From an uncultured Actinomycetota bacterium (lineage in GTDB: Bacteria; Actinomycetota; Actinomycetes; Prado026), in contig CAVYVA010000001.1 in the NCBI GenBank assembly GCA_963771835.1, positions 113,047-177,046 on the forward strand: 64,000 nt of DNA. The letters are read 5' to 3'. The notes beneath the pieces are model-generated. The model was not told the origin of the DNA. It made no database searches and was given only the letters and a program-made list of their open reading frames with translations. The position numbers and the translations under genes were made by a program. Position 1 is the stretch's first letter; each line of letters begins with the position of its first letter. Below, in pieces: positions 12,391-64,000 of this stretch.

Positions 12391-16040
<3,650 letters not shown>

Positions 16041-24960: not shown

Positions 24961-25394
24961 TGCCTGTCGAACAGGCCCGGCGCAGTCCGGGTGCACCGGT
25001 GCCTGCTGCCTGCCACGAGCTGCTCGAGGTCGCCCGGCACGGGTTGGCCGAGGCCACCACGGCCCGGACCGCCGCCGAACGCTATGCCGCCGCGCACCTG
25101 GCGGCCCTGCGCGCCGCGGCCGCGGTGCTGGCCTGCCGGGTCCGTCCGGGCAGTGGCCGGCGCGGACCGCGCAGCGTCTGGGTGGTGCTGCCGGAAGTGG
25201 CCCCGGAGCTGGGGGAGTGGGCTGCGTTCTTCGCGGCCGGCGCCGGCAAACGGGCCGCCGCCGAGGCCGGGCTGCCGAGCGCGGTGACCGTCCGCGAGGC
25301 CGACGACCTCCTGCGCGACGCCGCCTCGTTCCTGGCCCTCGTCGAGGCCACGCTGGGCCTGCCGCACCAGTCCGCCTTCCCGCTCGTCGGCTGA
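24961..25394 (+). CDS. SAV_6107-family HEPN-like domain protein
   Basis: 144-aa Ala-rich helical protein (ELLEVARHGLAEATTARTAAERYAAAHLAALRAAAAVLA...SVWVVLPEVAPELGEWAAFFAAGAGKRAAAEAG...TVREADDLLRDAASFLALVE) matching the family typically found just upstream of actinobacterial dnaE2. Assignment from memory. Confidence 0.45.
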
Positions 25395-25444
25395 TCCCGC
25401 GTCGTCCAGCGGCCGCGACCCTCACCGCCACCGGCCAGCCGACC

Positions 25445-28400: not shown

Positions 28401-29338
28401 TGCAGGTGGCGGACCTGGACCGGTGGGACCGTCCGGCCGGGCGCCGGTCCCGGATCGTCCCCGGCGCACGGGACGAGGCCGACCCGCACGCCACGCCCGG
28501 GGCCGCCGTCGTCGCGGCCGCGGCCAGGCAGTCGCAGGCCCCGGCGCGGGTGCGCGCCCCGGACGTGCAGCTCGCGCTCGACCTGGGCCCGGAGGAGACC
28601 GGGACCCGGTCCGGGCTGCCGGAGATGACCGGGGCGGAACGGGTCAGGGCCGAGCTCGACGTGCTCGGGCTGGACGCCAGCCGGCACGTCGTCGACTTCT
28701 ACGACCCGGTGCTCGAGGTCCTGGGGGTGACCCGCTCGCGTGAGCTGCTGCGCAGCCGCAGCCGGTCCGAGGTGATGGTTGCCGGGGTGAAGGTCGCCAC
28801 CCAGACCCCGCCGATCCGCTCCGGGCGGCGGGTCGTGTTCCTGACCCTCGACGACGCCACCGGCCCGGTCGACGCCACCTTCTTCGAGGACGCCCAGGGC
28901 CCTTACGCCGCAACGGTCTTCCACTCGTGGCTGCTGGTGGTCCGGGGCTACGTACGGCGGACGGGACCGCGGGGGGTCAGCGTGCGGGCCACCGGCGCGT
29001 GGGAGCTGTCCGCCCTGTTCGCCGCATGGGAGAGCGGGGGACCGGACGCCGTGTGGGCGGTCGTGACCGCACCGGTGCCTGAGCTGGACGCCGCGGGCCT
29101 GGAGCGGGCGGTCGAGGGCGCGGCCGGGTCCCGATCCACCCGTCCGGTCGTGGCGCCGGTGCCGGGGGGCGGCGACGGCACCAGGGCGGGCGGCATGGGC
29201 CAGCGACGTGTCCTGGTGCACCCGAGCGGTTTCCGGATGTCCCCGTACGCCGATGTCGGCACCCCCGGCGAGGACGTCAAGAAGGGCACCCCGCCACGCA
29301 AGCTGTGGCACTCCAGCCCGGGCAGCTCGGGGGCATGA
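25445..29338 (+). CDS. dnaE2: error-prone DNA polymerase III alpha subunit DnaE2 (ImuC)
   Basis: N-terminal PHP domain (FAHLHVASGYSLRYGASHPQALV...LALTDRDGLYGAVKF); polymerase core (GFCKAHAAAFALPTYHSAWLKAHHPAAF; FHEQVLKIL; HPCGVLLS); OB-fold; no exonuclease/tau-binding region; intact single frame of ~1298 aa. Confidence 0.9.
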   Translation: MPTDPFAHLHVASGYSLRYGASHPQALVTRAAEHGQEVLALTDRDGLYGAVKFAKACITAGVHPVFGVDLALAPSGALDGLGPSGPASARSGGRGGSGAGTRRTPVRGGSSVDPRHARVLVLARGKAGWAALNRLVSATHLGGERGRPVATVAQVAEHAAGGDLTILLGPSGELGRALAVRRPDIARTVLDTWRAVVDPHQLVVEIVCHYGAADGDPAALSSALAARMLGFARDHGVTAVLSNAVRYADRDQAVTADILDASRRLVALDLRHVDRPNAEGHLKSGPQMAEVAAEVSRLAGTGAGSGTGSGRAASDLLLEATRVLAQRCVLDPYADLGLGSVFLPELEVVDPAAATGPAGRAQALLRQRCEDGLGRRYGPAPGRRVLDRLDEELAVVARLGYATYFLTVAEVVDLIRSMQVRVAARGSGAGSLVNYLLGISGVDPLAHGLLMERFLSPLRQALPDIDVDVESARRSEVYERILQRFGGDRCACVSMMDTYRVRHAVRDVGAALGLPPGEVDALAKAFPHIRARDARAALADLPELRASRIGSSGLDRMFALVERLDGLPRHVALHPCGVLLSDLTLLDRTPVEASWLGFPMSQFDKDDVEDLGLLKLDVLGIRMQSSMAQAVQEVQRVDGVLVDLDAIPLDDGATFELIRSTHTLGCFQIESPGQRELVGKFGPETFDDLITDISLFRPGPVKSDMVTPFLRARQGWEPAQYFHPDLEPALAETYGVVVFHEQVLKILNVMTGCTLAEADEVRRSLGSPDTQPEVREWFYPRALAQGYPLGLVEKIWSVLREFASFGFCKAHAAAFALPTYHSAWLKAHHPAAFLAGVLTHDPGMYPKRLILDDARQLGISVLPLDVNASDAQYRVERVGRHDEPPPGILGSPPRPAPEPGSGLPDGRAYGIRLALSDVKGMSSAEVARVVAGRPYSTLSDFWHRARVSRPVVERLVVAGAFDSLYGIGSPVPVRRRGQVTRRDLLLQVADLDRWDRPAGRRSRIVPGARDEADPHATPGAAVVAAAARQSQAPARVRAPDVQLALDLGPEETGTRSGLPEMTGAERVRAELDVLGLDASRHVVDFYDPVLEVLGVTRSRELLRSRSRSEVMVAGVKVATQTPPIRSGRRVVFLTLDDATGPVDATFFEDAQGPYAATVFHSWLLVVRGYVRRTGPRGVSVRATGAWELSALFAAWESGGPDAVWAVVTAPVPELDAAGLERAVEGAAGSRSTRPVVAPVPGGGDGTRAGGMGQRRVLVHPSGFRMSPYADVGTPGEDVKKGTPPRKLWHSSPGSSGA

Positions 29339-29383
29339 TGACCGGCATGCCGTCGACGGGTGCCTCGAGGACGGGCGGGCCGT

Positions 29384-30641
29384 GAGCCGCAGCCAGCTGC
29401 ACCGCCCGGGCGAGCCGCAGCGCGGGCAGGGCGACGACACCGGGTGCACCGTCCTGCATGTCGACATGGACGCGTTCTACGCGTCCGTGTCGCTGCTGGA
29501 CCGGCCCGACCTGCGGGGCACGCCGGTGATCGTCGGCGGTGGTGGCAACCGCGGCGTCGTGCTGTCCGCCACCTACGAGGCGCGCCGGTTCGGCGTGCAC
29601 TCGGCGATGCCCATGACCAGGGCCAGGCGGATGTGCCCGCAGGCCACGGTGATCGAGCCCGACCACGCCCGCTACTCCCGGGTCTCCGCCGGAGTCATGG
29701 AGATCTTCCGCGACATCACCCCGATGGTCGAGCCGCTGTCGCTGGACGAGGCCTTCCTCGACGTGGCCGGATCCGTGCGCCGTCTGGGTCCGCCGGCGGC
29801 GGTCGGCGAGCTGATCCGCGCCCGGGTCCACGACGAGCAGGGGATCACCTGCTCGGTCGGGGTGGCGACGACCAAGTTCGTCGCGAAGCTCGCGTCGACC
29901 AGGGCCAAGCCGGACGGCCTGCTGGTCGTCCCGCAGCAGCACGTCGTCGAGTTCCTGCACCCGTTGCCGGTCGGGGCGCTGTGGGGGGTCGGGCAGCGGA
30001 CGGAGGAACAGCTGACCCGGCTCGGTCTGCGCACGGTGGGCGACCTCGCCCAGACCCCGGTCGCGACGCTCGAACGGGCCCTCGGGACGGCGGCCGGCCG
30101 GCACCTGGCCGACCTGGCCTGGGGGCGGGACCCGCGGTCGGTGGTCCCGCACGAGCCGGACAAGTCCGTCGGAGCCGAGGAGACCTTCGGGACCGACGTG
30201 GACGACCCGCAGGTGGTCCGCCGGGAGCTGCTGCGGCTGTCCGAGCGGGTCGGCTCCCGGTTGCGAGCCCAGGGCTACCGAGGGCGGACGGTTTCGATCA
30301 AGGTCCGCTTCGCCGACTTCACGACGATCACCCGCTCCAGGACGCTGCGCGACCCCACCGACGTGAGCCGGGAGATCTACTCGACGGCGCTGGGCCTGTA
30401 CGAGGCCCTGGGTCTGGACCGGGCCAGGCTGCGCCTCGTCGGGGTCCGGGTCGAGGGTCTCCTGGACTCCGACGTCGCCGAGGAGCAGCTGGTCCTGGGC
30501 GCCCCGGAGCACGGCTGGCGGGACGCGGACGCCGCCGTCGACCGGGCCGCCCGGCGGTTCGGCCGGGGCGCGGTGCGCCCGGCCACCCTGGTCCGGCGGG
30601 ACTCCGACGGCACTGTTCACCGGGCAGGTGCCGGACCGTGA
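29384..30641 (+). CDS. dinB: DNA polymerase IV (Y-family, DinB)
   Basis: ILHVDMDAFYASV, SLDEAFLDV, GITCSVGVATTKFVAKLAS, ALWGVG motifs; overlaps dnaE2 3' end (operon). Confidence 0.9.
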
Positions 30642-50789: not shown

Positions 50790-51318
50790 ATGGAACCGCA
50801 GCTCGTGCACCGGAACGACCCGGCCACGGAGTCGGACGAACGCACCATGCTCGAGGCCTGGCTGGAGTACCACCGAGCCACCCTGGCGCTGAAGTGTGCC
50901 GGGCTGGACGACGAACAGCTCCGGTTGCGCGCGGTACCGCCGTCGAACCTGTCCCTGGTTGGCCTGGTCCGGCACATGGCCGAGGTGGAGCGATGGTGGT
51001 TCCGGACCGTGCTCGCGGGGGAGCAGGTCGGCGACGTGTACTGCACCCCGGACAGCCCGGACGCCGACTTCGACGAGGTCGACGAGGCGAGCGGGGTCGA
51101 GGCGTTCGCCACCTGGCGGTCCGAGTGCGACCAGGCGCGGGCTCGCGCGGCCGAGCACACCGACCTGGCGGATGTCGGCATCCGGCCCCGTGGCGCCGAC
51201 GTGGGCGCAGCGTGTCTCGTTGCGCTGGATCTACGTGCACATGGTCGAGGAGTACGCCCGGCACAACGGCCACGCGGATCTCCTGCGTGAGCGCATCGAC
51301 GGCGTCGTGGGGGAATGA
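50790..51318 (+). CDS. DinB_2/DUF664 (mycothiol-dependent maleylpyruvate-isomerase N-terminal-like, metal-dependent four-helix bundle) protein; frame break near 51.18 kb
   Basis: N-terminal half in ORF 50790..51290 ([26 protein letters not shown]...[14 protein letters not shown]) and C-terminal half in ORF 50896..51318 ([26 protein letters not shown]) together form the DUF664 fold; inserted between ftsQ and ftsZ. Confidence 0.55.
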
Positions 51319-51385
51319 CTCTCTTTCGGGTGGATTTCGGCGTTCGAGTTGACCGTGGGCGCGAGGTGCGCCTAACGTCCTCCAC

Positions 51386-51421
51386 TACCTCAGGTTGACA
51401 TAACTGTAACCCTGTACCTGA
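51386..51421. promoter_or_regulatory. AT-rich ftsZ upstream region containing an 8-bp inverted repeat (CCTCAGGT-N20-ACCTGAGG) that encloses a TTGACA hexamer
   Basis: Read from sequence; local GC ~50% versus ~72% flanks; lies ~45-75 bp upstream of ftsZ start. Confidence 0.35.
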
Positions 51422-51461
51422 GGCTAAGGGTCGAGGAGTTCGAGGCACCGAGGGGTTCACC

Positions 51462-52625
51462 GTGGCTGCACCGCAGAACTACATCGCCGTGATCAAGGTG
51501 GTCGGCATCGGCGGCGGCGGCGTCAACGCCGTCAACCGCATGATCGACGTCGGGCTCAAGGGCGTTGAGTTCATCGCCATCAACACCGACGCGCAGGCGC
51601 TGTTAATGAGCGACGCCGACGTGAAGCTCGACATCGGTCGCGAGCTCACCCGTGGGCTCGGCGCCGGCGCCGACCCCGAGGTCGGCGAGCACGCCGCCCG
51701 GGACCACGCCGAGGAGATCGAAGAGGTCCTCAAGGGCGCCGACATGGTCTTCGTGACCGCCGGCGAAGGCGGCGGCACCGGGACCGGCGGCGCCCCCGTC
51801 GTCGCCAAGATCGCGCGATCGATCGGTGCGCTGACCGTCGGTGTCGTGACCCGTCCGTTCAGCTTCGAAGGTCGCCGCCGGGCCCAGCAGGCCGAGGCCG
51901 GCATCGAGTCGCTGCGGGCCGAGGTCGACACTCTCATCGTCATCCCGAACGACCGGCTGCTGTCCATCTCGGACCGCAACGTGTCGGCCCTCGACGCCTT
52001 CCGCTCCGCCGACCAGGTGCTGCTCTCGGGTGTCCAGGGGATCACCGACCTCATCACCACGGCCGGGCTGATCAACCTCGACTTCGCCGACGTCAAGTCC
52101 GTCATGTCGGGCGCGGGCTCGGCCCTCATGGGCATCGGCTCCGCGCGCGGCGAGGAGCGCGCCGTCCAGGCCGCCCGGGCGGCCATCTCGAGCCCGCTCC
52201 TGGAGGCGTCCATCGACGGCGCCCGCGGGGTCCTGCTCTCGGTGTCCGGAGGTTCGGACCTCGGCCTGTTCGAGATCAACGAGGCCGCCCGACTCGTCTC
52301 CGAGTCGGCGCACCCCGAGGCGAACATCATCTTCGGCGCGGTCATCGACGATGCCTTGGGCGATGAGGTGCGGGTCACGGTCATCGCCGCCGGCTTCGAC
52401 GGAGGCCAGCCCAAGACCCTGTCCTCCATGCCCCCGGTCGCAGCGGCGGTGCCGCACGTGTCCGAGCGACCGGCGCCAACCGCTGACGAGACCGCCGTCC
52501 CGTCCGGGCCGGCCGAACCGCCCGAGCGCGAGATCACGCTGCCCGAGCCGAAGAAGCCGCGCACGATCCTCTTCGACGACTCCACGACCGACGACGACCT
52601 CGACGTCCCCGACTTCCTGAAGTAG
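51462..52625 (+). CDS. ftsZ: cell division GTPase FtsZ
   Basis: [17 protein letters not shown], tubulin signature GGGTGTG(G)AP, NTDAQAL, T7 loop NLDFADV; acidic C-terminal peptide [10 protein letters not shown]. Confidence 0.95.
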
Positions 52626-52646
52626 GCCGACCGAGGTTCCAGGCGC

Positions 52647-53042
52647 TCAGCCGGGACCAGGCAACGCGCCCGCTGCCAGGAGAACCTCATGCGCCGCCCG
52701 GAACGCCTGACGCCCGGCTGGCGTGCCGCAGTACACGGTGGCGTGAATCAGTACCTCCTTGATCTCGTCGACCGATACGCCGGTAGTCAGCGCGCCCTTC
52801 ACGTAGATGCCCAGCTCGTCGGGCCGCCCCAGCGCCGTCAGGATCGCAAGATTCAGCATGCTCCGTGTCTTGCGATCCAGACCTGGCCTGCTCCAGGCGT
52901 ATCCCCACGCCCACTCGGTCACGACACGCTGAAATGCCATCATGAACTCGTCGGTGTCAGCCAGGTTCGCGTCGACGTACTCAGCACCCAGCACGTCTCG
53001 ACGCGCCTGAAGGCCCCTCTCGAACAGTTCGCTTTCTGCCAT
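52647..53042 (-). CDS. carboxymuconolactone decarboxylase (CMD/AhpD-like) family protein
   Basis: 131 aa; MMAFQRVVTEWAWGYAWSRPGLDRKTRSMLNLAILTALGRPDEL...LIHATVYCGTPAG is the CMD-family core. Confidence 0.8.
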   Translation of the reverse strand: MAESELFERGLQARRDVLGAEYVDANLADTDEFMMAFQRVVTEWAWGYAWSRPGLDRKTRSMLNLAILTALGRPDELGIYVKGALTTGVSVDEIKEVLIHATVYCGTPAGRQAFRAAHEVLLAAGALPGPG

Positions 53043-53128
53043 GGCGGGCGAGTCCTTCCTCAGTGGAGACCAACGCCGCAGGTGGGGTACCTCGGCGCTT
53101 ACGGCGCGCCAGACAATTGCAGTCCGGA

Positions 53129-53365
53129 CTATCGGACATCGCTCCTAGCGTTGTCCATATCCATCCCCCGAGCTGGCGCTGGCGGTTCGACAGACGCTGG
53201 GCTCTGCTCGGACGTGGCGTCGGCCGGATGGGTAGGGCCGGGTCGAGGTTGCACGACCAAGGCGACGGTAGCGACGGCGGTGATCACGATTCCCGAGACC
53301 GCGATCGTCAGGTTTGCGCCGATGTGGTTGATGAGGATGGCGACCAGCGGGAGCCCGACGCTCAA
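53129..53365 (-). CDS. small hydrophobic protein or transporter remnant (78 aa)
   Basis: N-terminal 35 residues strongly hydrophobic (LPLVAILINHIGANLTIAVSGIVITAVATVALVV), Pro-rich tail; may be a gene fragment. Confidence 0.2.
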   Translation of the reverse strand: MSVGLPLVAILINHIGANLTIAVSGIVITAVATVALVVQPRPGPTHPADATSEQSPASVEPPAPARGMDMDNARSDVR

Positions 53366-53432
53366 CAGTGAGGGAGGTGCTGCCCGGTCGCAGGGCCTCG
53401 CATGACGAGCGCGGATTGGGCAATCTGTACAC

Positions 53433-54206
53433 GTGGCGAAGGCAGGTGGGCGGCGCGGTGGGCCGGACGAAGGTGCGCTGCTGGCGCTCTTCCGTGCGAT
53501 CGATTCACGCGACGACCTCGAGATTGCGCGACGGCTGGACTCATCGCGCGATCTCGCAAACTGTCCGATTCACGTCGGGGCTAGCCGCCATGATGCCGAG
53601 ACGTACTTCCTTGCTGCGATCCGTCACTACGTGTACGGCGGCGACACGGCGCTGCACATCGCTGCCGCCGCGCATCAACGAGAACTCGCCGAGTCGCTCG
53701 TCACAAGAGGCGCCGACGTTCGCGCTCGTAACCGAAGAGGAGCGGAACCGCTCCACTACGCCGCCGACGGGAGTCCCGGCGGGGAGCACTGGGATCCGGT
53801 GGCACAAGGTGACGTGATCACGTATCTCATCGAAGCGGGCGCTGATCCGAACGCGCTCGACAACAGCGGTGTGGCGCCGCTGCATCGAGCCGTTCGGACT
53901 CGTTGCTCAGCGGCGGTCAGCGCCCTCATCGAGAACGGTGGGACTCCGCAGCTGATGAACAAGAACGGTTCGACACCGCTGCACCTCGCCGTTCAGAGCA
54001 CAGGCCGGAGCGATTCTGGCTCGGCAGCGGCGAAAGGCGAACAGGGTCGGATCATCGCCGTGCTTCTCGAACACGGCGCGAGTCCAACCGATGTCGATGC
54101 GAACGGCAAGACCGTCGCGGCCGCAGCATCCAGTGACTGGATCCGTGAACTGCTCGGCATCCCTGACCGCGCTGGTTGGCACCGGAGATTCGACAGGGGA
54201 GGCTGA
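53433..54206 (+). CDS. ankyrin-repeat protein
   Basis: GTG start; 4-5 ANK repeats recognisable (GDTALHIAAAAHQRELAESLVTRGADVRARNRRGAEPLHYAA; GADPNALDNSGVAPLHRAV; GGTPQLMNKNGSTPLHLAV; GASPTDVDANGKT). Confidence 0.75.
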   Translation: MAKAGGRRGGPDEGALLALFRAIDSRDDLEIARRLDSSRDLANCPIHVGASRHDAETYFLAAIRHYVYGGDTALHIAAAAHQRELAESLVTRGADVRARNRRGAEPLHYAADGSPGGEHWDPVAQGDVITYLIEAGADPNALDNSGVAPLHRAVRTRCSAAVSALIENGGTPQLMNKNGSTPLHLAVQSTGRSDSGSAAAKGEQGRIIAVLLEHGASPTDVDANGKTVAAAASSDWIRELLGIPDRAGWHRRFDRGG

Positions 54207-54349
54207 AAGGCACGGGGTCGATGCTCTCCGAAGTGTGGATCTTGAGGTACCTGTGCCAGCGGAGCCGGCACAGTGGTTCTCCGCCGCCGAGACGCGTTCA
54301 GCGCTTCATGACCGCGCCTCGCACATGAGCGCCTCGGAACTCAGCGAAG

Positions 54350-55090
54350 ATGTGGCCCATGGGATGGGAGGCACTCGAGCAGTGGGGTGACGACGTCGCT
54401 CGCATCGAACCCCTCGCTGGCGGAGTCGCCAACCAGGTGTGGAGCGTGCGGGTCAACGGGCAGCTCGCGGTCGGTCGTCTTGGCGCCCGCAGCGACGCTG
54501 ATCTCGCGTGGGAGACCGACCTGCTGCGACATCTCGACCGTGAAGGGCTGACGGTGCCGGTACCGATCTCGACGACGGACGGCCGGCTGTTCGCCGACGG
54601 TCTGGTGGTGATGACCTACGTGGTGGGCGGACGGCCCGAGACGGAGGCCGACTGGCGTCGCGTCGCCGACACGCTCCGCCAGCTGCATCGGTTGACGCAG
54701 GGCTGGCCGCAGCGCCCGGGCTGGCGATCGTCCACCGACCTCTTGCACGCCGAGACCGGGACGAAGATCGACCTCGGCGCAATGCCGCCTGAGGGCGTTG
54801 CTCGATGCCGAGCAGCGTGGGCGCGGCTCACCGGACGTCAGACATGCGTCGTCCACGGCGACACCAACCCGGGCAACATCCGCATGACCGCCGATCGGGT
54901 CGCGATGATCGACTGGGACGAGTCGCACGTAGACGTCCCCGACCTCGACCTGGTGCTACCCCACAACGCCGCCTGTCTCGACGACGGCGCGCACGACATC
55001 GCCGCGCAAGCGTCGGCCGCATGGGAGGCCGCCGTCTGCTGGGACGACGAGTACGCGGTCAGGCGGCTCGCCGAGGTTCGAGCGGTCTGA
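54350..55090 (+). CDS. aminoglycoside-phosphotransferase (APH)/choline-kinase-like phosphotransferase family protein
   Basis: Brenner motif VVHGDTNPGNI and D-x-D/E Mg-binding (IDWDES); N-terminal nucleotide-binding lobe (QVWSVRVNGQLAVGRLG). Confidence 0.7.
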   Translation: MWPMGWEALEQWGDDVARIEPLAGGVANQVWSVRVNGQLAVGRLGARSDADLAWETDLLRHLDREGLTVPVPISTTDGRLFADGLVVMTYVVGGRPETEADWRRVADTLRQLHRLTQGWPQRPGWRSSTDLLHAETGTKIDLGAMPPEGVARCRAAWARLTGRQTCVVHGDTNPGNIRMTADRVAMIDWDESHVDVPDLDLVLPHNAACLDDGAHDIAAQASAAWEAAVCWDDEYAVRRLAEVRAV

Positions 55091-55176
55091 GCAGAAGAGT
55101 GGAGACCAGGGCTCCACTGAGCCGTTGCCGGGTCACGCACGAAACCGACGGAGGTGGACGCCTGGGCGCGGCCCCG

Positions 55177-55581
55177 CTAGTTCGGCTCTTCGATGGTGAT
55201 GTCACTGCCGTGAACCGTCAGCGCCCAGACAACGAAGACAGACGACGTGATGAAGATAACCCCCCAGATCGGGTACATCGGCAGCCAGGCGAACCCGATC
55301 AGTCCGCTGGCCACCGCCAGAATCACACCGACGATCCTGGCCCACAGCGCTCCCACGAAGAGCGCGCCGCTCGCCACCACGACGAGGATCCCGAGCAACA
55401 GGTGGATCCAGCCCCACGTGGTGATGTCGAACTTGAAGACGTACTTGGGAGTCTTCACGAAGATGTCGTCCTTGAGGATCCCGGTAAGTCCGGCGAAGAA
55501 CCACCACCAGCCCAGCATGAACATCATGAATGCCGCAAAGAAGGTCCATCCCAGGGCCGCGCCACTTCGGTTTCGCGCCAT
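55177..55581 (-). CDS. small integral membrane protein (Trp-rich, 4 TM)
   Basis: MARNRSGAALGWTFFAAFMMFMLGWWWFFAGLTGIL...; hydrophobic throughout; local GC ~57%. Confidence 0.45.
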   Translation of the reverse strand: MARNRSGAALGWTFFAAFMMFMLGWWWFFAGLTGILKDDIFVKTPKYVFKFDITTWGWIHLLLGILVVVASGALFVGALWARIVGVILAVASGLIGFAWLPMYPIWGVIFITSSVFVVWALTVHGSDITIEEPN

Positions 55582-55857
55582 GCCATCCTCCCTTGACGAT
55601 CCGGCGAAACAGGGACCATGAGCCGCCGCCGCTGGTGCAGCAGATCGACTCTCAGGGACGAGAATAGGGCCAGCACTCGCAAGCAATGCCAGTTCGACGC
55701 GCCCTGGAACGGCACCTACGGGCTGCGGAACCGCACCGAATGCCGGATGTGGTCAGCCCGCAACCGGCACCTATGTTCGGTCCGGGCAACGCGCAAGATC
55801 GTCAGCCACCTCGGCGCCGAGACCCATACGGGCAGCCAGAACTTCCACAACAGGTCA

Positions 55858-55874
55858 GAGCAGACAGTCTGCTC
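55858..55874. other. perfect palindrome GAGCAGAC-a-GTCTGCTC in 330-bp intergenic region
   Basis: Read from sequence; 8-bp arms, 1-nt centre; downstream of acyltransferase fragment stop, upstream of membrane-protein gene. Confidence 0.3.
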
Positions 55875-55911
55875 AGTCGTGTCCGCTTGCAGTGGCATCC
55901 GGCGCGACCGT

Positions 55912-56712
55912 TCACATCATTCGCGGTAGTCCCAGACCAGCTGGATCGAAGATGTGACGGCCGGACATACCAGGTCTACGCGAAAGTTGAGCCCGCATCG
56001 GACGCTCGACGAACCGGAAGCTCGCCTCGGCCAGCACGACGAACATGGCAATCCAGGCGATATCACCGACTACCGTATGTCCGAGCGTAGCGAGTATCGC
56101 GATTCGCGCGAGGACATTCCAGAGATAGATCGAGTACGACCGCTCGCCCAGCCACCGCATTGGGCCGCTTGCCAACAGCGATCCAACTGCAGATCGTGGC
56201 CAAGTCACGACGCCGATCAATGTCACGAGCGTCAGTCCGGTTCCTGCGACGATCACCAGAGAGCTACGATCGGTGTCGTTTCGATATGCCAGGACGGGCA
56301 GGAGGGCAACGGTTATCAGCGCACAGGGCGCAAGATACTGAACTGTCCGGGGCAGCCAACCGTTGTGAACGACTATCGCCAGCAATGAGCCGACCAGGAT
56401 GGGCAGCGCATTTGTGTCGCTCCCGAAATACTCGTGCTGATCGAAGACCACCTCTCGACTCAGGCCGAGGTAGAGGTCAAGCGCCAGGGTGATCCCGATG
56501 AACGACACGGTGAGTGCGGCGAACAGCCGAGGATTGCGGCGATAGCCCCAGAGCAGCACGAACGGCCACAACAAGTAGAACTGCTCCTCGACCGAGAGCG
56601 TCCATGTGTAGTTGAAGTAGTCCTTGGTGGCGAAGGAGTGGCCAGTCCAGTCAAAGAGGTTTGTTCCATATGCAACGGCTGCGCCGGCGGGTGCGAAGAT
56701 CTGCTCCAGCAT
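55912..56712 (-). pseudogene. acyltransferase family 3 (O-acyltransferase, OafA/OpgC-like) gene lacking its N-terminal ~100-130 residues
   Basis: Begins inside the conserved TWTLSVEEQFYLLWPFVLL (HTWSLxVEEQFY) motif region, with no upstream in-frame sequence resembling the first two TM helices or the conserved LDGLRAIA start. Upstream in-frame translation (to 57084) is non-homologous and Arg/Pro-rich. GC ~56%. Confidence 0.5.
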
Positions 56713-57114
56713 CACGCCCGTCGGGTCCCGCGGTGAGTGTCCGGCGGGGACATCAACCAGGTCCCCGGGCAGCGGGCTGGAGGCCGACGCGCAGTCGCTC
56801 ACCGGGGCGCCACCGTCCTGCCGTGAGCCATAGCCCCTCCGCCGTCTGCGCAGGCCACGCACTATTCTCGTCCGAGAGGGGTCGCGACGATGACATCGTC
56901 GGCAGAGTGGTTTCACCCGGGGCGCATGGCCCCGGCATGTCGAGCTGCGAAACGCACCCAATGCGCATGGCGATGGTGGCGAGCTGGTCGACGGAGGACG
57001 CATGAGGACGCCCCCCACCTTCCCGGCTTCCTGAAGTAGGCCGCCCGAGCGCTGGTCGGGCCCGCAGGCTCCTGCTGGCACCACGGCCGTCTGGCGTCGT
57101 GGGCGACTCCGGTC

Positions 57115-57933
57115 TCAGGGCAGCTGCCGCACCAGCACCCGGGCGAGCTCGGCCGCGTGCGTGAGCGGCATCATGTGGCCGGCCCCCTCGATGACGCTGT
57201 GACGGGCGTGCTGGACACCCCTGAGGACCGCCGCGCAGATGGCCCGGTCCACGACCGACGCCGCGGATCCCTCGATGACGTGCACCGGCAGGGCCACCGA
57301 CGCCAGCGAGCCTGCGGTGACGGGCGCGTCGAAGAGCACGTCCCAGAGGTCTCCTCGCGCGCGTTGCTCCTCGAGGAACGCGTCACGCCGGGCGGCGGGC
57401 CACGCTGCAAAGGACCCCCGCCCGTTGTAGAAGTCGATGAATCCCTCGAACGCCGCGTACCAGTCACCCACCCGGACACGCCCGCGCCACTGTTCGCGCA
57501 GGTTCCGGATCGTCGTGTACGCCGGCCCGTCCTCGGCCGTGAGCAACGAGTACGCCTCCGGCTCGACCACGGCCACGGAGACCAGCGCCGCCGGCTTGGT
57601 GGCGGCCACGTGCAGTGCGGTCGCCCCACCCCACGAGAATCCAACGAGGTGAATGGGCTCGCCGACGTGGCTCACGACCGAGTGGACCTGGTCGGCATAG
57701 TCGTCGAGGGTGCGATGTCCCGGAAGGCCAGGGCCACTGCCGCCCCGGAAGGCATCCATGGCGATCAGGCGGTAACCCGTCGGCCAGACCGAGAAGACAT
57801 CCCACCACTCGCCGGCGCTGCCCACCCCGCTGTGCAGGAACACCACCGGCGTGCCGGCGCCCCGCTCGACGATCTTGACGGTGCCGTCGCGTCGTGTGCG
57901 CAGCACGGCCTTCAGAGAGTCGGCCACCGGCAC
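57115..57933 (-). CDS. alpha/beta-fold hydrolase
   Basis: VVFLHSGVGSAGEW; nucleophile elbow GFSWGG; C-terminal GAGHMMPLTHAAEL (His of triad). Confidence 0.8.
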   Translation of the reverse strand: MPVADSLKAVLRTRRDGTVKIVERGAGTPVVFLHSGVGSAGEWWDVFSVWPTGYRLIAMDAFRGGSGPGLPGHRTLDDYADQVHSVVSHVGEPIHLVGFSWGGATALHVAATKPAALVSVAVVEPEAYSLLTAEDGPAYTTIRNLREQWRGRVRVGDWYAAFEGFIDFYNGRGSFAAWPAARRDAFLEEQRARGDLWDVLFDAPVTAGSLASVALPVHVIEGSAASVVDRAICAAVLRGVQHARHSVIEGAGHMMPLTHAAELARVLVRQLP

Positions 57934-57942
57934 ATCCTGCTG

Positions 57943-58396
57943 CTACTCCCGCTCGATCGTCCGCAGACCCCGGGACGGCGTCCACCACTCGACCACGAGG
58001 AGGGTGGCCGTGTCGTTGAGGTGGGTGTGCACGACCTCGGCGATGTCGGCGCGGAACAGCTCACCCTCGGCATCGGCCGCCGGACCGTCGAGGATCGCTC
58101 GGCCGGCGATCTTCGCCTCGCCGGGCCACCGCGCCCGGGCCTCCTCGACCGGGTCGACCGTGGCGCTATGAAGGGCGAATCGCGGGTCGCGACGCAGGTC
58201 CGCGCCCTTGCGGGCGTTCGGCATCGAGCCGAAGATCAGCTCGCCGTTCTCGAATCGTGTCTCGATCCCCGAGATCCGCGGCGAGCCGTCGGCTCGCAGG
58301 GTGGCAATCGTCTTGTGCGGATGTGCGTCGAACAGTGCACGTACTCGATGAGCGAAGGCGGGCTCCGAGCGCTCGACCGCTTGCCATGTCACCACC
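57943..58396 (-). CDS. pyridoxamine 5'-phosphate oxidase-family (PPOX class, possibly F420-dependent) protein
   Basis: ~150-aa split-barrel: ATLRADGSPRISGIETRFENGELIFGSMPNARKGADLRRDPRFALH. Confidence 0.6.
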
Positions 58397-58578
58397 CTGT
58401 CATCATCCCGCAGTCCTGGTGACGCTCTGTGCAGGCGCCTCGGCGAACGGCGACGGACGGCGTCACGCTGGGTGAGCGGAATGCTGCGTTGCGGGATTAG
58501 GCCGTTCGGCCCATTCACGTCGACCGTGGCGGTTCGCCACGGTTGGGCCTTCGTCGTCGGTGCGGGAAGCAGGCTGTC

Positions 58579-59304
58579 ATGATCCGTCGTGGTCTGGTCG
58601 CTGTGGTCGTGACGTCGGTGTGCGCCGTCGTGCTCGGGCCGGTCGGATCCGCTCGCGCGGCCACCGTCGTCGCGCTGTGGAACATGAATGAACCACCCGG
58701 GGCGAAGGTGCTGGTGGACAGCTCGGCCAACCACATCAACGGCACGATCGGAACCTCGATCACCCTGAACGGTGCCGTCCACTCGTTCCCGCAGGTCCAG
58801 CGCGGCTTCAACAACGCGACGTTCGACCCGCAGCACCTGGATGTCGTCAACGACCCGCGCACGAACCCGGGCACGTCGGACTTCACCGTGACGGCCAGGA
58901 TCAAGATCGCCAAGCCTTCCGACGCGTTCGGCAACGTCATGCAGAAGGGCCAGTCCGGATCGCTCACCGGCTTCTGGAAGATCGAGCTCGACGGGCCCAC
59001 GCGCGGGCTGGTGTTCTGCGGCTTCACGTCCATCGTCAACGGAGTCACCACCGCGGGCGGGATCCGCAGCCCGATCAACGTCGCGGACAACCAGTGGCAC
59101 GTGGTGACCTGCGAGCGCGGGCCGGGCTTCGTGTCCACCACGGTTGACGGACACACGACCAAGCAGATGCACGCGGTCGGCAACGTCGTCAACAACGTGC
59201 CGCTCACCATCGGCGGCAAGGGCAACTGCACCGCGGCGACTCTGCACCACGACTGCGACTACTTCGAGGGTCAGATCGACTACGTCCAGATCCAGACCGG
59301 ATGA
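58579..59304 (+). CDS. secreted concanavalin-A-like lectin/LamG-domain protein
   Basis: Signal peptide MIRRGLVAVVVTSVCAVVLGPVGSARAA; LamG-like features (DFTVTARIKI...GNVMQKG...WHVVTCER...VDG) and terminal Cys pair. Confidence 0.5.
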   Translation: MIRRGLVAVVVTSVCAVVLGPVGSARAATVVALWNMNEPPGAKVLVDSSANHINGTIGTSITLNGAVHSFPQVQRGFNNATFDPQHLDVVNDPRTNPGTSDFTVTARIKIAKPSDAFGNVMQKGQSGSLTGFWKIELDGPTRGLVFCGFTSIVNGVTTAGGIRSPINVADNQWHVVTCERGPGFVSTTVDGHTTKQMHAVGNVVNNVPLTIGGKGNCTAATLHHDCDYFEGQIDYVQIQTG

Positions 59305-59310
59305 TCCCGG

Positions 59311-60120
59311 TCAGCGTTGCTGGAACAGTGCATCGGGGTTCGGCAGATCGTTGAAGTGGGTGAAGGTCCCAGCGTCTGCGATCTCCTGGGCAGCCTGCCG
59401 GAAGCTGGACCAGGCCACGCGGGCGAGCGTGCCCCCCACGCTGATCCGGCGCACTCCCAGCGCTGCAGCCTCGGCGACGGTGATGAACGGGGTGTGGACC
59501 AGCAGGTTCACCGGCTTGGGTGCCACCGCGGCCACGATGGCCGAGACCTGTTCAACGGTGTCGATCCGCGGGGCGTAGAGGCAGTCCGCGCCGGCCTCTG
59601 CGTAGGCACGCAGCCGTAGGATCGTGTCGTCGATGTCAGGGTGGCCGATAACGAACCCTTCTGAGCGGCCGGTGAGCAGGACGCCGCGGCCGGTCTCGTC
59701 GATCGCTGCACGCGCCGCGCGCACCCGTTCGACCGCCAGCTCGAGCGAGAGCAGTGGGTCAGCCTCGTCGTCGGTGGAGTCCTCGATCGACAGTCCCGCG
59801 ATGCCGGTCGCCGCAGCACGCTTCACGTTTGCGCCGACCTGCTCCGGGTCGACCGCGTAACCGCCCTCGAAGTCGGCGCTCACCGGCAGCGAGACTGCGT
59901 CGACCACGCTGCTCAGATGCTCCAGCATCTCTTCCAGCCCGACGCCCTTGTCGGCCCGACCCAGCGTCCAGGCGAAGCCGGCGCTCGTTGTCGCCAGCGC
60001 CCGGAAACCCATCTGCTCCAGGGCCAGCGCACTGCCGACGTCCCACGGGTTCGGCATGACGAAGCAACCCGAGGAGTGCAGACGGTGGAACTCAGCGACC
60101 CGCTCGTCCTGCACGCTCAT
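59311..60120 (-). CDS. isocitrate lyase/PEP mutase family protein (2-methylisocitrate lyase / carboxyvinyl-carboxyphosphonate phosphorylmutase-like)
   Basis: FHRLHSSGCFVMPNPWDVGSALALEQMGFRALATTSAG...GLSIEDS...GADCLYAP (ICL/PEPM family signature regions). Confidence 0.8.
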   Translation of the reverse strand: MSVQDERVAEFHRLHSSGCFVMPNPWDVGSALALEQMGFRALATTSAGFAWTLGRADKGVGLEEMLEHLSSVVDAVSLPVSADFEGGYAVDPEQVGANVKRAAATGIAGLSIEDSTDDEADPLLSLELAVERVRAARAAIDETGRGVLLTGRSEGFVIGHPDIDDTILRLRAYAEAGADCLYAPRIDTVEQVSAIVAAVAPKPVNLLVHTPFITVAEAAALGVRRISVGGTLARVAWSSFRQAAQEIADAGTFTHFNDLPNPDALFQQR

Positions 60121-60187
60121 GGCGTACCTCCTCGGTGGTGGCTCAGGCGGCGAAGATGACGTGCCACATACTGACGGATCGGGGGCG

Positions 60188-60661
60188 CTAGTCCGTGTGC
60201 AGGATGGTCTCCTCGATTTGGCTTCTCCGGCCGGGTGCAAACGAGATCTCGGTTCCGACGATCGTGAAACCCGCCTTCTGGAGGACCCTGAGCGAGGCGA
60301 TGTTGTCGCTGGCCGCGCGGGCGTGCAGCGGCCGGGTGGGGACCAGGTCCATGAGCAGCTCAAGCGCTCGGCTCGCGATGCCGCGTCCCCATGCTGCGCG
60401 GTCGATCCAGTAGGTGACCTCGGTTTCGCCATCGACGACGAAGGAGCCAACGCTGCCGACGAGCTGGCCGTCGCAAACGACCGCGCGCAGTGTGGTGTCG
60501 GGCGAGGATCTCACCTTGGCCATGTGCGCCTCGAATGCGCTCTTGTCGTCGGGGTCGTCGGGGGTGAACGCGGCCATCCAGACCGACTCGGGGTCGCGCA
60601 TCTGGTCGAACAGCGCGTCGAGGTCAGCGTCGGCGACCGGCCTTAGCGCGATGTCTGGCAT
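60188..60661 (-). CDS. GNAT family N-acetyltransferase
   Basis: Motif A region VGSVGSF...WIDRAAWGRGIASRALELL; 157 aa. Confidence 0.8.
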   Translation of the reverse strand: MPDIALRPVADADLDALFDQMRDPESVWMAAFTPDDPDDKSAFEAHMAKVRSSPDTTLRAVVCDGQLVGSVGSFVVDGETEVTYWIDRAAWGRGIASRALELLMDLVPTRPLHARAASDNIASLRVLQKAGFTIVGTEISFAPGRRSQIEETILHTD

Positions 60662-60799
60662 GTCTCTTCCCTGCTTCCCGTGGGCCGCGAAACAATAGTG
60701 CAGGCAGGTCGGTGCGCGCGCGACAGAGTCTCGTGGCCGATCCTGAGCTCCGTCATCGTGTGTGCCCTGGCCGGGGCGGCCGTGGGTATCGTCGTCAGC

Positions 60800-61168
60800 A
60801 TGGAACGAGTCCTTGGGATCGGGGGCTACTTCTTCCGGGCCGAAGACCCCGAGGCCCTTGCCGCCTGGTACGAGGTCAACCTCGGCATCGCGAGCATGAG
60901 CACTGGTTGGTCATGGGAGCAGGAAGCGGGGCCGACCGTTTTCGCCCCCTTCCCCGCCGACACCGACTACTTCGGGCGCAGAGACCAACAGGTCATGCTC
61001 AACTTCCGAGTGGCCAACCTCGACGCCATGCTCACCCAGCTACGAGCGGCTGGAGCCTCGGTCGAGGACGAGACCTCCGAGGCGAGCTACGGGCGGTTCG
61101 GTCACGCCGTTGATCCTGAAGGCAACCGTTTCGAGCTCTGGGAACCCTCGCAGACCCCCGGAACCTAG
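60800..61168 (+). CDS. VOC (glyoxalase/bleomycin-resistance/dioxygenase) family protein
   Basis: LGIGGYFFRAEDPEALAAWY...GHAVDPEGNRFELWE typical paired beta-alpha-beta-beta-beta module ends. Confidence 0.65.
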   Translation: MERVLGIGGYFFRAEDPEALAAWYEVNLGIASMSTGWSWEQEAGPTVFAPFPADTDYFGRRDQQVMLNFRVANLDAMLTQLRAAGASVEDETSEASYGRFGHAVDPEGNRFELWEPSQTPGT

Positions 61169-61170
61169 TG

Positions 61171-62529
61171 TCAGCCGGTCACGGCGTACAGGTGCCAGCG
61201 GTCAGGCACGCCCTTGAGCTCGTGCTCGCCGGCCTCCCTGAAGGTCAGTCCGGAGCCGGCGACCAGGTCTTTGACCGTCTGCGAAGTCAGCACCTGGGAG
61301 GGCGCCGCCAGCGCCGAGATCCGCGCACCGGTCGCAACGGCGATCCCGCCGATCTTGCCGTCGATCACCTCGCACTCTCCGGTGTGCACCCCGGCGCGGA
61401 TCTCGATGCCCAGATCGCGAACCCGCGCGATGATCTCCAGGGCGCAGCGGATCGCTCGGGCCGGCCCGTCGAAGGTCACGTAGAAGCCGTCGCCGGCGGT
61501 GTCCTGCTCGACCCCTCGCCATTGCGCCACAGCTCCACGGACCAGCGCGTGGTGTTGCTCGACCAGCTCTTTCCACCCTTGGTCACCGAGAGCCGCCTGC
61601 CGTTGGGTGGAACCGACGATGTCGGTGAACAGCACCGAAGCCAGCGTCGAGTCGAGCCCGGGGCGCGCTGAGTGCGTCCCCTCGACGAATCGTTGGACCG
61701 CTTCCAGCCGCGGCCGGATGTATGACTCCATGGTCTCGCTGGTTGGCCACTCGTCACCTGGGACGACGACCACCTCCGCCGCCGGCATCGAGGCGGCGAC
61801 GTAGCTCGCCGTGTCCAGGGCCCAGCGTTCGGACGAGTCGACCATCAGCAGGGTCGGTGTCCGGACCGAGGGAAGCACTGCGCGGAGATCCGTGTCCCAC
61901 CACACCTTGGTGAAAGCGTGGACCACTTCGGGGGTGCAGGTGTTCCTGCTGGCCTTGGCCACTGCAAGGATCTCGACCTCGGGCGGCCGAAGCCCGTCCT
62001 CGCCCGCGAATTGGTCGGCCCAAGCCTGCCCATACTCGGCAGTGCCCCAGTGCTCCAGCCCGCGCAGCTCCTCCTCGATTTGTGCTGGACCCCACCCCCA
62101 CGGGTAGTCCGGCGCCCAGGTCGTACGCGGAGTCGGGTTCCACCAGACCAGGCCGCGCACCCGGTCCGGGTGGGTCGCGGCGAGAAGCACACCCGGAGCC
62201 AGTCCGCCGAACTGTCCGGCGATCACGGTGCTCCGCGACCCGACGTGGTCGAGCACGACGCGCAGATCGGCGGTCTGCGTCTCCAGGTTGGGCGGGTTGG
62301 TGTTGCGAGTCGACAGACCGGTCCCACGACGGTCGTGCAAGATCACCCGACCTAAGGAGGCCAGAGCGTCGTACCACGCGGCGCCCATCGGACTGTCCCA
62401 GGCGCAGTCCAAGTTCCCGAAGAAGTCGAACTGCCAGGCAATGTCGACCGGGCCGGCGCCGACCACCGCGTAGGCGATGTAGGTCCCGTCCGGGGTCCGC
62501 ACGTATCGCGGGTCGGGAGTCGTCACGGC
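61171..62529 (-). CDS. alpha/beta-hydrolase domain fused to class III adenylate/guanylate cyclase domain
   Basis: N-terminal hydrolase fold (RTPDGTYIAYAVVGAGPVDIAW...VIAGQFGG). The C-terminal domain (SVLFTDIVGSTQRQAALGDQGWKELVEQHHALV...GDGFYVTFDGPARAIRCALEIIARVRDLGIEIRAGVHTGE) carries the conserved class III cyclase metal-binding Asp. Same architecture as mycobacterial LipJ/Rv1900c. Confidence 0.8.
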   Translation of the reverse strand, partial: AVTTPDPRYVRTPDGTYIAYAVVGAGPVDIAWQFDFFGNLDCAWDSPMGAAWYDALASLGRVILHDRRGTGLSTRNTNPPNLETQTADLRVVLDHVGSRSTVIAGQFGGLAPGVLLAATHPDRVRGLVWWNPTPRTTWAPDYPWGWGPAQIEEELRGLEHWGTAEYGQAWADQFAGEDGLRPPEVEILAVAKASRNTCTPEVVHAFTKVWWDTDLRAVLPSVRTPTLLMVDSSERWALDTASYVAASMPAAEVVVVPGDEWPTSETMESYIRPRLEAVQRFVEGTHSARPGLDSTLASVLFTDIVGSTQRQAALGDQGWKELVEQHHALVRGAVAQWRGVEQDTAGDGFYVTFDGPARAIRCALEIIARVRDLGIEIRAGVHTGECEVIDGKIGGIAVATGARISALAAPSQVLTSQTVKDLVAGSGLTFREAGEHELKGVPDRWHLYAVTG

Positions 62530-62707
62530 CACATGCTCTGCCCCCGGCCACGGCGCCGACAACACAAATCGCAATCTGCACGCTCGGACCACCCGCCCGG
62601 CCGAGGACCTTCTCCTCTTACCGCCGCCGGTGCGGCTGCGGAGACTGGGGTGGTCCCACCGCTCGACCGGCTCATCGAACCGGTCCATCGAGGACTGGAG
62701 GCGCATC

Positions 62708-63193
62708 ATGACCACGACTGCGACCGCGTCGACCACCCGCCCTGTTCATGCGGATGAACGAGGGCAGGGGCATCGAAGCTTCGGCATGAGAAACCCAGGA
62801 GTCACACTCTCGACTCTTTGGGTCTTCGTCATGTTCAACTACCTCTACTGTGACCTGTTGGGATTGATGGACAGCAGGTTCCTGAAGGAGTACCTGACCG
62901 GACATGTGAACGGAATGGACGTCACGCAAGGGTTTCTGCTTGGTGCCGCCGTTCTGATGGAGATCCCCATCGCCATGATCGTCCTGTCCAGGGTGTTGAA
63001 GCCCAGGACGAGCCGCCGCGCCAACATCGCCGCCGGTTCGGTCATGACCGTCGTCCAGATCGCGTCGCTGTTCGTCGGCGGCCTGACCATGTACTACGCA
63101 TTCTTCAGTGTCGTTGAGATCGCGTGCACGTCATTCATCGTCTGGTATGCATGGAGATGGCGTGTCCCCGAGGTTCGTGCGGCGACCGATTGA
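62708..63193 (+). CDS. integral membrane protein (DUF-type, 4 TM)
   Basis: LSTLWVFVMFNYLYCDLLGLMD...MEIPIAMIVLSRVL...VMTVVQIASLFVGGLTMYYAFFSVVEIACTSFIVWYAW; start codon uncertain. Confidence 0.45.
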   Translation: MTTTATASTTRPVHADERGQGHRSFGMRNPGVTLSTLWVFVMFNYLYCDLLGLMDSRFLKEYLTGHVNGMDVTQGFLLGAAVLMEIPIAMIVLSRVLKPRTSRRANIAAGSVMTVVQIASLFVGGLTMYYAFFSVVEIACTSFIVWYAWRWRVPEVRAATD

Positions 63194-63249
63194 GGGCCAC
63201 CGCGGCCAACCGCACTCATAGTCAGGATGCCGCTCGTAGAGACTGGTCG

Positions 63250-64000
63250 CATGCGGGTAACCCCGGTCGCGGTGGTGCTGCTGGTCGCCGCGCTCGCCTC
63301 CTGCTCGATCGAGCCTGCCTCGCCGTCGGCGACAGCGCGGGCTCGCGCCACCGGCTCCGCCGCGACCAGCACCGCCGGTACGCCGTCCGCGCCCGACTGG
63401 CCGACCTATCACGGTGACGCGGCCAGGACCGGGGTGTCGACCACGATGCCGGCCGCGAGCGGCCATCTCTCGGTCAGGGCCGCGCTCGACCTGGACGGGG
63501 CCGTATACGCGTCCCCGATCGTGGTCGGTGAGGTCACGATCGCTGTCACCGAGCACGACACGGTGTACGGGCTGGACGGCACTGGGCTGCAGCTGTGGCG
63601 GGTGAGCCTCGGCTCGCCGGCGCCGGGCCGGCAGCTGCCCTGCGGCAACATCGATCCGCTCGGCATCACCGGAACACCGGTGTACGACCCGTCGACCAGG
63701 CTGGTCTACCTGGTTGCCGAGCTGGGTGGCCCACCCCGGCACGAGCTGGTGGCCCTGAGCCCTGTCGACGGCACCGTCGCCTGGCGGACCGGGGTGGATC
63801 TGCCCGGCGTCGACCCCGCGGCGATGCAGCAGCGCGGCGCGCTGACTGTCGCCGCCGGCTCGGTCTGGGTGCCGTTCGGAGGCTTGGCCGGCGACTGCGG
63901 CGCGTACAAGGGGCGGGTTGTCGGCGTCGCGCTCGATGGCGCGCACACGCGGACGGCGTTCACCGTGCCGACCGGCCGTGAGGGCGGCATCTGGGCTCCA
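63250..64000 (+). CDS. lipoprotein with PQQ-like beta-propeller repeats (BamB/PQQ-enzyme-repeat family), 5' part only (runs off window)
   Basis: Manual translation (not in ORF track because no stop in window): MRVTPVAVVLLVAALASC (lipobox LAS|C) ...AVYASPIVVGEVTIAVTEHDTVYGLDGTGLQLWRV...TPVYDPSTRLVYLVAEL...ALSPVDGTVAWRT: repeated A-x-D-x-x-tG-x-x-lW propeller blades. Confidence 0.5.

Follow-up and report, generated by a model that had tools for sequence, protein, structure and literature searches.

The Division and Cell Wall Cluster of a Soil Actinomycetes Lineage Is Probably Split by Strain-Specific DNA Inserted After ftsZ

Introduction

Few gene orders of Gram-positive bacteria are more stable than ftsZ–pgeF–ylmE–sepF–ylmG–divIVA; in Streptomyces, these genes are co-transcribed with ftsZ. 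This order is not found in a 64,000-nucleotide (nt) stretch of DNA from an uncultured Actinomycetota bacterium of the Prado026 lineage (GenBank assembly GCA_963771835.1, contig CAVYVA010000001.1, positions 113,047 to 177,046 of the forward strand; hereafter ‘the window’), where the cluster of cell-wall and division (dcw) genes gives way just past the ftsZ stop codon to accessory DNA. The locus raises a simple question: has the block downstream of ftsZ been lost, as an earlier note made from the sequence had it, or has it been parted from ftsZ by incoming DNA? The analysis described here indicates that the dcw cluster was probably split by a strain-specific, horizontally acquired insertion after ftsZ, and not cut short by loss. 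The insertion comprises a 4.4 kb segment bounded by a direct repeat of the ftsZ 3′ end, termed island A, and 6.2 kb of further accessory DNA, termed segment B.

The dcw Cluster Breaks Immediately After ftsZ

In the window, mraZ, mraW, ftsI, murE, murF, mraY, murD, ftsW, murG, murC, ftsQ, and ftsZ are collinear. A protein search with FtsZ returned relatives of 100, 98, 95, 94, and 91% identity, all of them metagenome-assembled and unclassified ‘Actinomycetes bacterium’. The identical protein, P0001, belongs to this genome, and the C-terminal peptide of FtsZ is intact. Against the annotated genes of the closest relative, L081 (FtsZ 98%), the dcw stretch is collinear and 94% identical at the nucleotide level (94.3% over 11.2 kb of dcw genes), and ftsZ itself holds 95–96% identity up to its stop codon, with no jump in divergence near the 3′ end.

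The canonical adjacency of ftsZ with pgeF (ylmD), ylmE, sepF, ylmG, and divIVA was not found. Queries for PgeF, YlmE, SepF, YlmG, and DivIVA, drawn from one Streptomyces locus and each checked with Pfam, have no homologue anywhere in the 64 kb window by tblastn; the absence first noticed just after ftsZ thus holds for the whole window. It is also unusual. Among actinobacterial loci collected by scanning GTDB genomes with FtsZ (matches of at most 77% identity over the full length), sepF lies 0.9–2.2 kb 3′ of ftsZ (median 1.75 kb) in 69/69 other loci that have at least 4 kb of sequence after ftsZ.

The Streptomyces genes ftsZ, ylmD, and ylmE make up one operon, with the stop codon of ftsZ overlapping the start codon of ylmD (PMC5943314). 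The window shares with the extended Streptomyces cluster described there the collinear half from mraZ to ftsQ–ftsZ, and its relatives likewise keep the pgeF–ylmE–sepF–yggT–divIVA–ileS block intact. Unlike Streptomyces, the window has a convergent foreign gene after ftsZ, with pgeF at least 11.4 kb away (26–31 kb in relatives), and its lineage carries an MST-family gene between ftsQ and ftsZ.

Alignment to relatives by blastn places the breakpoints at the ends of genes. Homology to L081 stops at window position 52627, 2 bp past the ftsZ stop codon; homology to L082 (FtsZ 94%) ends at 52632 and that to L083 (FtsZ 95%) at 52624. On the other side, similarity to L081 restarts at 63238–63239, which boundary alignment puts ~12–13 nt before the ATG of a gene for a PQQ_2 lipoprotein. 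Synteny is regained here, the PQQ_2 gene being 88.5% identical to L081 positions 14526–15302 and 77.7% identical to L083, in which it sits directly between ftsZ and pgeF. The DNA in between (52628–63238) is strain-specific, with a guanine plus cytosine (GC) content of 0.665 vs. 0.747. L083 has 61 bp between ftsZ and PQQ_2, L081 has 3.36 kb, and the window has 10.6 kb; no gene is shared among these intervals, and L082 carries yet another gene set after ftsZ.

The ftsZ–PQQ_2 interval shows the pattern of what comparative genomics calls flexible genomic islands or insertion hot spots, in which conserved core genes flank content that differs across relatives. It resembles them in having the same two core flanks, strain-dependent content, breakpoints at gene ends, and mosaics of single genes. 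It differs from typical examples in that few bacterial gene orders are as conserved as the one in which it sits, and in that one insertion carries a target duplication.

The sepF–divIVA Block Is Displaced in Relatives

In the relatives, the block can be located. In L083, the order is ftsQ–MST–ftsZ–PQQ_2–pgeF–ylmE–sepF–yggT–divIVA–ileS, and in L171 (FtsZ 91%), pgeF follows 1.1 kb after ftsZ, so that the block adjoins ftsZ. In L081 and L082, by contrast, there is no block within 10 kb of ftsZ, and unrelated genes stand there instead. Placing the SepF genes of these two relatives on their ftsZ-bearing contigs located the block farther downstream: L081 has 26.2 kb between the end of ftsZ (195431) and the start of pgeF (221582), and L082 has 30.8 kb (443816 to 474615). 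In both, pgeF, ylmE, sepF, yggT, and divIVA keep the same strand and internal order, with ileS next.

For the genome of the window, the records of FtsZ (P0001), SepF (P0125), and PgeF (P0243) each give a single contig with a length of 1,352,473 bp; P0125 is 93% identical to SepF of L083 and P0243 is 93% identical to PgeF of L085. On these records, the block is probably present in this genome. Judged by sequence comparison, it has apparently been displaced downstream by insertion and not lost, contrary to the loss claimed in the earlier note. Its position we infer from these contig records together with the arrangement in the relatives.

The ftsZ–pgeF junction, at which translation is often coupled in other actinomycetes, would in this soil lineage be a place that gathers accessory DNA and exchanges it over time. 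An ancestral-like state, as in L083, would have been ftsZ–PQQ_2–pgeF–ylmE–sepF–yggT–divIVA–ileS, and in the subclade of the window a wedge of 26–31 kb appears to part ftsZ from pgeF. On its pgeF side, the wedge would consist of a shared polysaccharide and cell-envelope cluster of native GC content, and on its ftsZ side of lower-GC DNA that differs in every genome; the window would cover only the first 11.4 kb. The pgeF-proximal part encodes an epimerase, a GT4 glycosyltransferase, a 367-amino-acid (aa) APH, a flippase, and PIG-L, Bac_transf, and Acetyltransf_6 proteins, and is common to L084, L085, and L086 at a GC content of 0.746–0.748. In relatives, the older part of the wedge, seen at positions 15945–21164 of L081 and 1–8400 of L084, L085, and L086, combines this polysaccharide-synthesis cluster with genes for a Pel9A-like beta-helix protein and a two-component system, at a native GC content of ~0.75.

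Island A Is Bounded by a Direct Repeat of the ftsZ 3′ End

A second copy of the ftsZ terminus stands 4.4 kb downstream, at the right edge of island A (Table 1), a feature that had escaped the earlier note. The right copy matches the left at 38 of 46 positions. A perfect 17-nt core, CTTCCTGAAGTAGGCCG, occupies 52613–52629 in the left copy and spans the ftsZ stop codon. The local alignment score of the repeat is 52, compared with a mean of 23.8 and a maximum of 33 for shuffled downstream sequence (0/200 reach 52), and a 23-mer pattern allowing up to three mismatches finds only these two sites in the window, with 0.00 expected. The mismatches are unevenly spread, with seven in the first 23 nt and one in the last 23, i.e., 16/23 matches to the left of the core and 22/23 from the core rightwards. 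All seven coding mismatches of the right copy fall in six codons, each altering the amino acid, so the right copy is not under selection; as a relic or mimic of the ftsZ terminus, it is non-functional. The sequence beyond it has no similarity to what follows ftsZ or precedes PQQ_2 in the relatives.

The repeat suggests how island A may have entered, namely by recombination that used and duplicated the last ~35–46 bp of ftsZ. The outcome would be direct repeats resembling attL and attR that share an identical 17-bp core across the stop codon; the C-terminal peptide of FtsZ would stay intact. If island A were absent, the empty site would be expected to read ...GACTTCCTGAAGTAGGCCGCCCGAGCGCTGGTCGG, and the junction of a circularised island ...CCTTCCCGGCTTCCTGAAGTAGGCCGACCGAGGTTCCAGG.

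Composition and Foreign Origin of the Cargo

Base composition sets the whole interval apart. The window has an overall GC content of 73.2%, averaging 0.747 over its first 50.8 kb and ~0.67 after ftsZ. Island A, at 0.650 overall and 0.60 in its poorest 500 nt, is the lowest part of an anomaly that extends over 10.6 kb; the stretch is poorer in GC than its left flank, as had been estimated by eye, without being as low as the 56–62% put forward. Nor is the right flank a uniform 72%. The GC content rises at 56.75–57.0 kb, coincident with the right repeat copy, and reaches 0.70–0.73 only at 56.75–58.25 kb, while 57050–63238 as a whole stands at 0.676. Codon usage follows the same trend: the GC content of third codon positions (GC3) is 0.69–0.86 in genes of island A, 0.79–0.90 in genes of segment B, and 0.91–0.96 in dcw and core genes.

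Island A, which corresponds closely to the stretch at 52626–57100 for which a horizontally acquired insertion had been proposed, carries the genes that had been read there: a CMD-family gene convergent with ftsZ and 21 bp past its stop codon, followed by ankyrin-repeat, APH-family phosphotransferase, Trp-rich membrane protein, and N-terminally truncated acyltransferase genes, parted by non-coding spacers (53043–53432, 55687–55911, and 56671–57114). Pfam and a check of reading frames bear out these assignments. The hydrophobic N-terminus of the acyltransferase is not encoded in any frame of 56670–57114, and therefore its truncation is real and not a frameshift.

The APH gene points to a foreign origin. 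Its open reading frame (ORF) is 88.7% identical in nucleotide sequence to one on a plasmid of Gemmatirosa kalamazoonensis (Gemmatimonadota) and 84–85% identical to many on Rhizobium plasmids, the similarity being limited to the ORF in each case. Copies on Ensifer plasmids were found by tblastn, and amino acid identity reaches 83–86% for the Gemmatirosa and best Rhizobium copies. The number of synonymous substitutions per synonymous site (dS) is 0.27 to Gemmatirosa and 0.42–0.45 to Rhizobium. For comparison, ftsZ dS between the window and the sibling species L082 and L083 is 0.45–0.57. Since the dS of APH across phyla is no greater than that of ftsZ between sibling species, the gene moved between phyla, and acquisition by cross-phylum transfer appears to be the only reading compatible with these sequences. 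The encoded protein has 243 aa, with 77–86% protein and 84–89% DNA identity among the copies in the window, on the Gemmatirosa plasmid, and on the Rhizobium and Ensifer plasmids, which number in the dozens (L088–L090); it matched no NCBIfam model.

The ankyrin gene has a separate history. Its ORF, and the ORF only, is 75–94% identical in nucleotide sequence to ~27 soil metagenome contigs of 65–71% GC (L091–L118), with a dS of 0.13–0.28. The contexts are unrelated: between polA and rpsA/uvrB in one contig and near aceE in another. Elsewhere it is always a lone ORF in differing core-genome surroundings, e.g., after polA in L094. None of these soil-contig loci has any other island gene. Similarity confined to ORFs, unlike contexts, and the lack of co-travelling island genes therefore mark the cargo as a mosaic of single-gene acquisitions and not one element. 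No phage similarity was found in the cargo and the plasmid matches listed span the APH ORF only, so the cargo shows neither a prophage nor a plasmid-backbone origin.

How the Insertion May Have Arisen

Island A shows three hallmarks of integrated islands, namely a direct repeat derived from the target, deviant composition, and absence from L081–L083, without an integrase. It is comparable to genomic islands with attL and attR at the 3′ ends of housekeeping or tRNA genes (reviewed in PMC2704930) in its repeat of the target end, the reading frame kept, low GC content, and foreign cargo; unlike them, it has no integrase, measures only 4.4 kb, and has an imperfect repeat. The features expected of a transposon or insertion sequence are lacking as well, as there is no transposase, no terminal inverted repeats occur at 52636/57049 among the reported pairs, and the duplication is 46 nt long and imperfect. 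To our knowledge, ftsZ has not been described as an island target, and no report of a genomic island at ftsZ was found in the literature searched. The cargo would consist of single genes acquired individually, with no recombinase gene remaining.

Several observations weigh against the explanation of a cluster split by insertion. Neither an integrase nor a transposase occurs among the ~45 window ORFs scanned with Pfam, which include all of 52.6–63.2 kb, in agreement with the earlier note; there is no tRNA gene in or near the region; and 56670–57114 has no coding remnant of a recombinase. The repeat is imperfect (8/46 mismatches) and has no second example in L081, L082, or L083. An att-like 22-mer was not found in JGI metagenomes, and the 17-mer core met only two chance matches among viral contigs, in phage contigs of 34% and 51% GC. 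Any dedicated att site is thus putative. Lastly, the collinearity of pgeF and sepF with ftsZ in this genome rests on matching 1,352,473-bp contig records and on analogy with the relatives. The kind of recombination and the sequence of events are likewise inferred.

A plausible route, to which we give somewhat less than an even chance, is homology-facilitated illegitimate recombination or a Campbell-type single crossover with a related strain that carried other genes downstream of its ftsZ end. The sequence at 57004–57049 would then be the displaced, neutrally decaying terminus of ftsZ, and the interval a flexible island swapped by way of its ftsZ and PQQ_2/pgeF flanks. Such exchange requires no recombinase. 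It fits a variable segment that runs from 2 bp past ftsZ to 13 nt before PQQ_2 in every comparison, with content unlike in every genome, and it accounts for a relic in which all coding substitutions alter the amino acid, as expected without selection. Two observations fit it poorly: the identity of ftsZ to L081 shows no local change near the 3′ end (95–96% throughout), and the mismatches are unevenly spread, seven in the first half of the repeat and one in the second. Import of a distant donor ftsZ together with the island was considered separately and is ruled out by the same 95–96% identity to L081, which extends to the last codon.

That uneven distribution is in turn among the points that favour site-specific integration of a circular element, whose attP mimicked the ftsZ 3′ end and recombined with an attB over the stop codon; the integrase gene would either have been deleted later, taking the acyltransferase 5′ end with it, or the enzyme would have acted in trans. 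The perfect core lies exactly over the stop codon, with 16/23 matches to its left and 22/23 from it rightwards, the FtsZ reading frame is preserved, and the right repeat has a truncated gene and a non-coding stretch of 350 bp beside it. Furthermore, a divergence of 8/46 exceeds the ~0.08 per site expected for neutral sequence since the split from L081 (ftsZ dS 0.159), hinting that the two copies already differed when joined. We nevertheless hold this route to be a tentative possibility, and a rather doubtful one: there is no recombinase gene, the site was not met again in relatives, metagenomes, or (beyond chance) viral contigs, and the cargo genes have separate histories. A stronger version, that the last ~20 bp of ftsZ and its stop codon form a genuine attachment site of an undescribed integrative element or trans-acting recombinase of soil Actinomycetes, and that repeated integration and decay split the dcw cluster of the lineage, is speculative and unlikely; recurrent use of the site in other genomes or elements was not seen.

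It is very unlikely that the block was truly lost or relocated by rearrangement in this genome. Its absence from the 11.4 kb after and the 51 kb before ftsZ would agree with such an event; against it stand the orthologues of SepF and PgeF, which share 93% identity with their counterparts in relatives and are recorded like FtsZ on a contig of 1,352,473 bp, the relatives that share the break and keep the block collinear 26–31 kb downstream, and the end of the window in a PQQ_2 gene, which in L081 comes ahead of the remaining wedge. An artefact of this long-read metagenome assembly, with unrelated sequences joined at the ftsZ stop codon, a refutation that the earlier note had left open, can hardly be entertained: indel errors are likely, given the frameshift in MST and the many broken genes of the sister assembly L081, but synteny with L081 and L083 returns 10.6 kb on in the same orientation, three independent assemblies break at the same nucleotide, and the ftsZ-end repeat is found within the contig at a distance of 4.4 kb from that point. 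Because synteny returns in the same orientation and breakpoints are shared by independent assemblies, a chimeric contig is very unlikely, and insertion after ftsZ is the reading retained here.

Gene Content of the Interval and Neighboring Regions

Features of the locus are collected in Table 1.

Table 1. Positions of genes, repeats, and accessory segments from the ftsQ–ftsZ gap to the end of the window.
Feature	Position	Strand	Remarks
MST/DinB-family gene	50790–51318	+	Pfam MST 5.4e-31; between ftsQ (end 50768) and ftsZ
ftsZ	51462–52625	+	Pfam Tubulin + FtsZ_C; intact; last syntenic gene of dcw cluster
Left repeat copy	52590–52635	+	Final 33 nt of ftsZ plus stop codon plus 10 nt past it
Island A	52636–57049		4,414 bp; GC 0.650; repeat-bounded; absent from L081, L082, L083
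CMD-family (PcaC-like) gene	52647–53042	-	Pfam CMD 1.8e-20; convergent, 21 bp past ftsZ stop
Ankyrin-repeat gene	53433–54206 (also given 53418–54206)	+	Pfam Ank_2 + Ank; lowest GC3 of region, 0.69
APH-family phosphotransferase gene	54350/54359–55090	+	Pfam APH 4e-22
DUF7144 Trp-rich membrane protein	55177–55686	-	Pfam DUF7144 1.3e-36
Acyl_transf_3 fragment	55912–56670	-	Pfam positions 106/116–312 of 326
Right repeat copy	57004–57049	+	38/46 positions match left copy; reads EDAPHLPGFLK*
Segment B	57050–63238		6.2 kb accessory DNA; strain-specific; GC 0.676
Alpha/beta hydrolase	57115–57933	-	Pfam/NCBIfam
F420/PNPOx-like	57943–58410	-	Pfam/NCBIfam
Secreted LamG protein	58543–59304	+	Pfam/NCBIfam
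PEP-mutase/isocitrate-lyase family	59311–60087	-	Pfam/NCBIfam
GNAT	60188–60661	-	Pfam/NCBIfam
Glyoxalase_6	60680–61168	+	Pfam/NCBIfam
LipJ-like hydrolase-cyclase	61171–about 62520 (region to 62736)	-	Pfam/NCBIfam
DUF6326	about 62786–63193	+	Pfam/NCBIfam
PQQ_2 (BamB-like beta-propeller) lipoprotein gene	63251–64000	+	Pfam PQQ_2; cut by window end

Within island A, the CMD protein scores 134 bits against the NCBIfam model decarb_PcaC, under the cut-off of 155.7, and no terminator-like site lies between ftsZ and the CMD gene. The DUF7144 protein likely starts at the ATG at 55581. The 390-bp spacer between the CMD and ankyrin genes contains, on the minus strand at 53130–53400, an open frame that lacks a start codon; the encoded sequence has a transmembrane-like stretch (LLSVGLPLVAILINHIGANLTIAVSGIVITAVATVALVV), and the frame is possibly what remains of a gene. 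A ‘perfect palindrome’ formerly assigned to the spacers is the 12-mer ACGTGATCACGT at 53812–53823; it lies inside the ankyrin ORF and is one of 64 such 12-mers in the window, i.e., noise.

Segment B has no counterpart in L081–L083 and no detectable flanking repeat. Its LipJ-like gene encodes a fusion of an alpha/beta hydrolase and an adenylate cyclase (NCBIfam 2.2e-87, under the family cut-off).

Upstream of ftsZ, the MST gene is a second departure from the common gene order, and one that had also gone unnoticed. The window copy is frameshifted by a 1-nt insertion near 51225, seen as an extra base in the alignment, which may be a long-read assembly error; the gene is intact (175 aa) at the same position between ftsQ and ftsZ in L081, L082, L083, and L171. 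Elsewhere, the ftsQ–ftsZ gap has a median of 287 bp and exceeds 900 bp in only 3/57 loci. The intergenic sequence between MST and ftsZ (51319–51461) is 99% identical to that of L081 and 90–95% identical to those of L082 and L083, vs. a background of ~83%, and probably holds the ftsZ promoter and leader.

Two further groups of genes stand out in the window. At 24356–30641, a DUF6504 gene, a gene for a DnaE2-like Pol III alpha subunit (1373 aa), and a Y-family (IMS) polymerase gene stand in a row; this trio looks like a damage-inducible cluster of the mutasome type. Carotenoid-related genes for lycopene cyclase, phytoene synthase, polyprenyl synthase, and Caroten_synth are scattered 5′ of the dcw cluster, at 7102–7467, 9192–10211, 13920–14726, and 22209–23006.

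Significance

As a genomic islet at a hot spot of insertion, the region is ordinary; its place, right after ftsZ, is unusual, and it does not represent a new kind of system. The locus warns against scoring a gene as absent from a window alone. Its APH and ankyrin genes also offer a clean example of single genes moving between soil-bacterial phyla. As for cell division, the lineage shows that the linkage of ftsZ to the genes downstream can be broken by 26–31 kb of accessory DNA, and a gene can stand between ftsQ and ftsZ, with no division gene lost. Thus, the expression of SepF and DivIVA need not be coupled to ftsZ.

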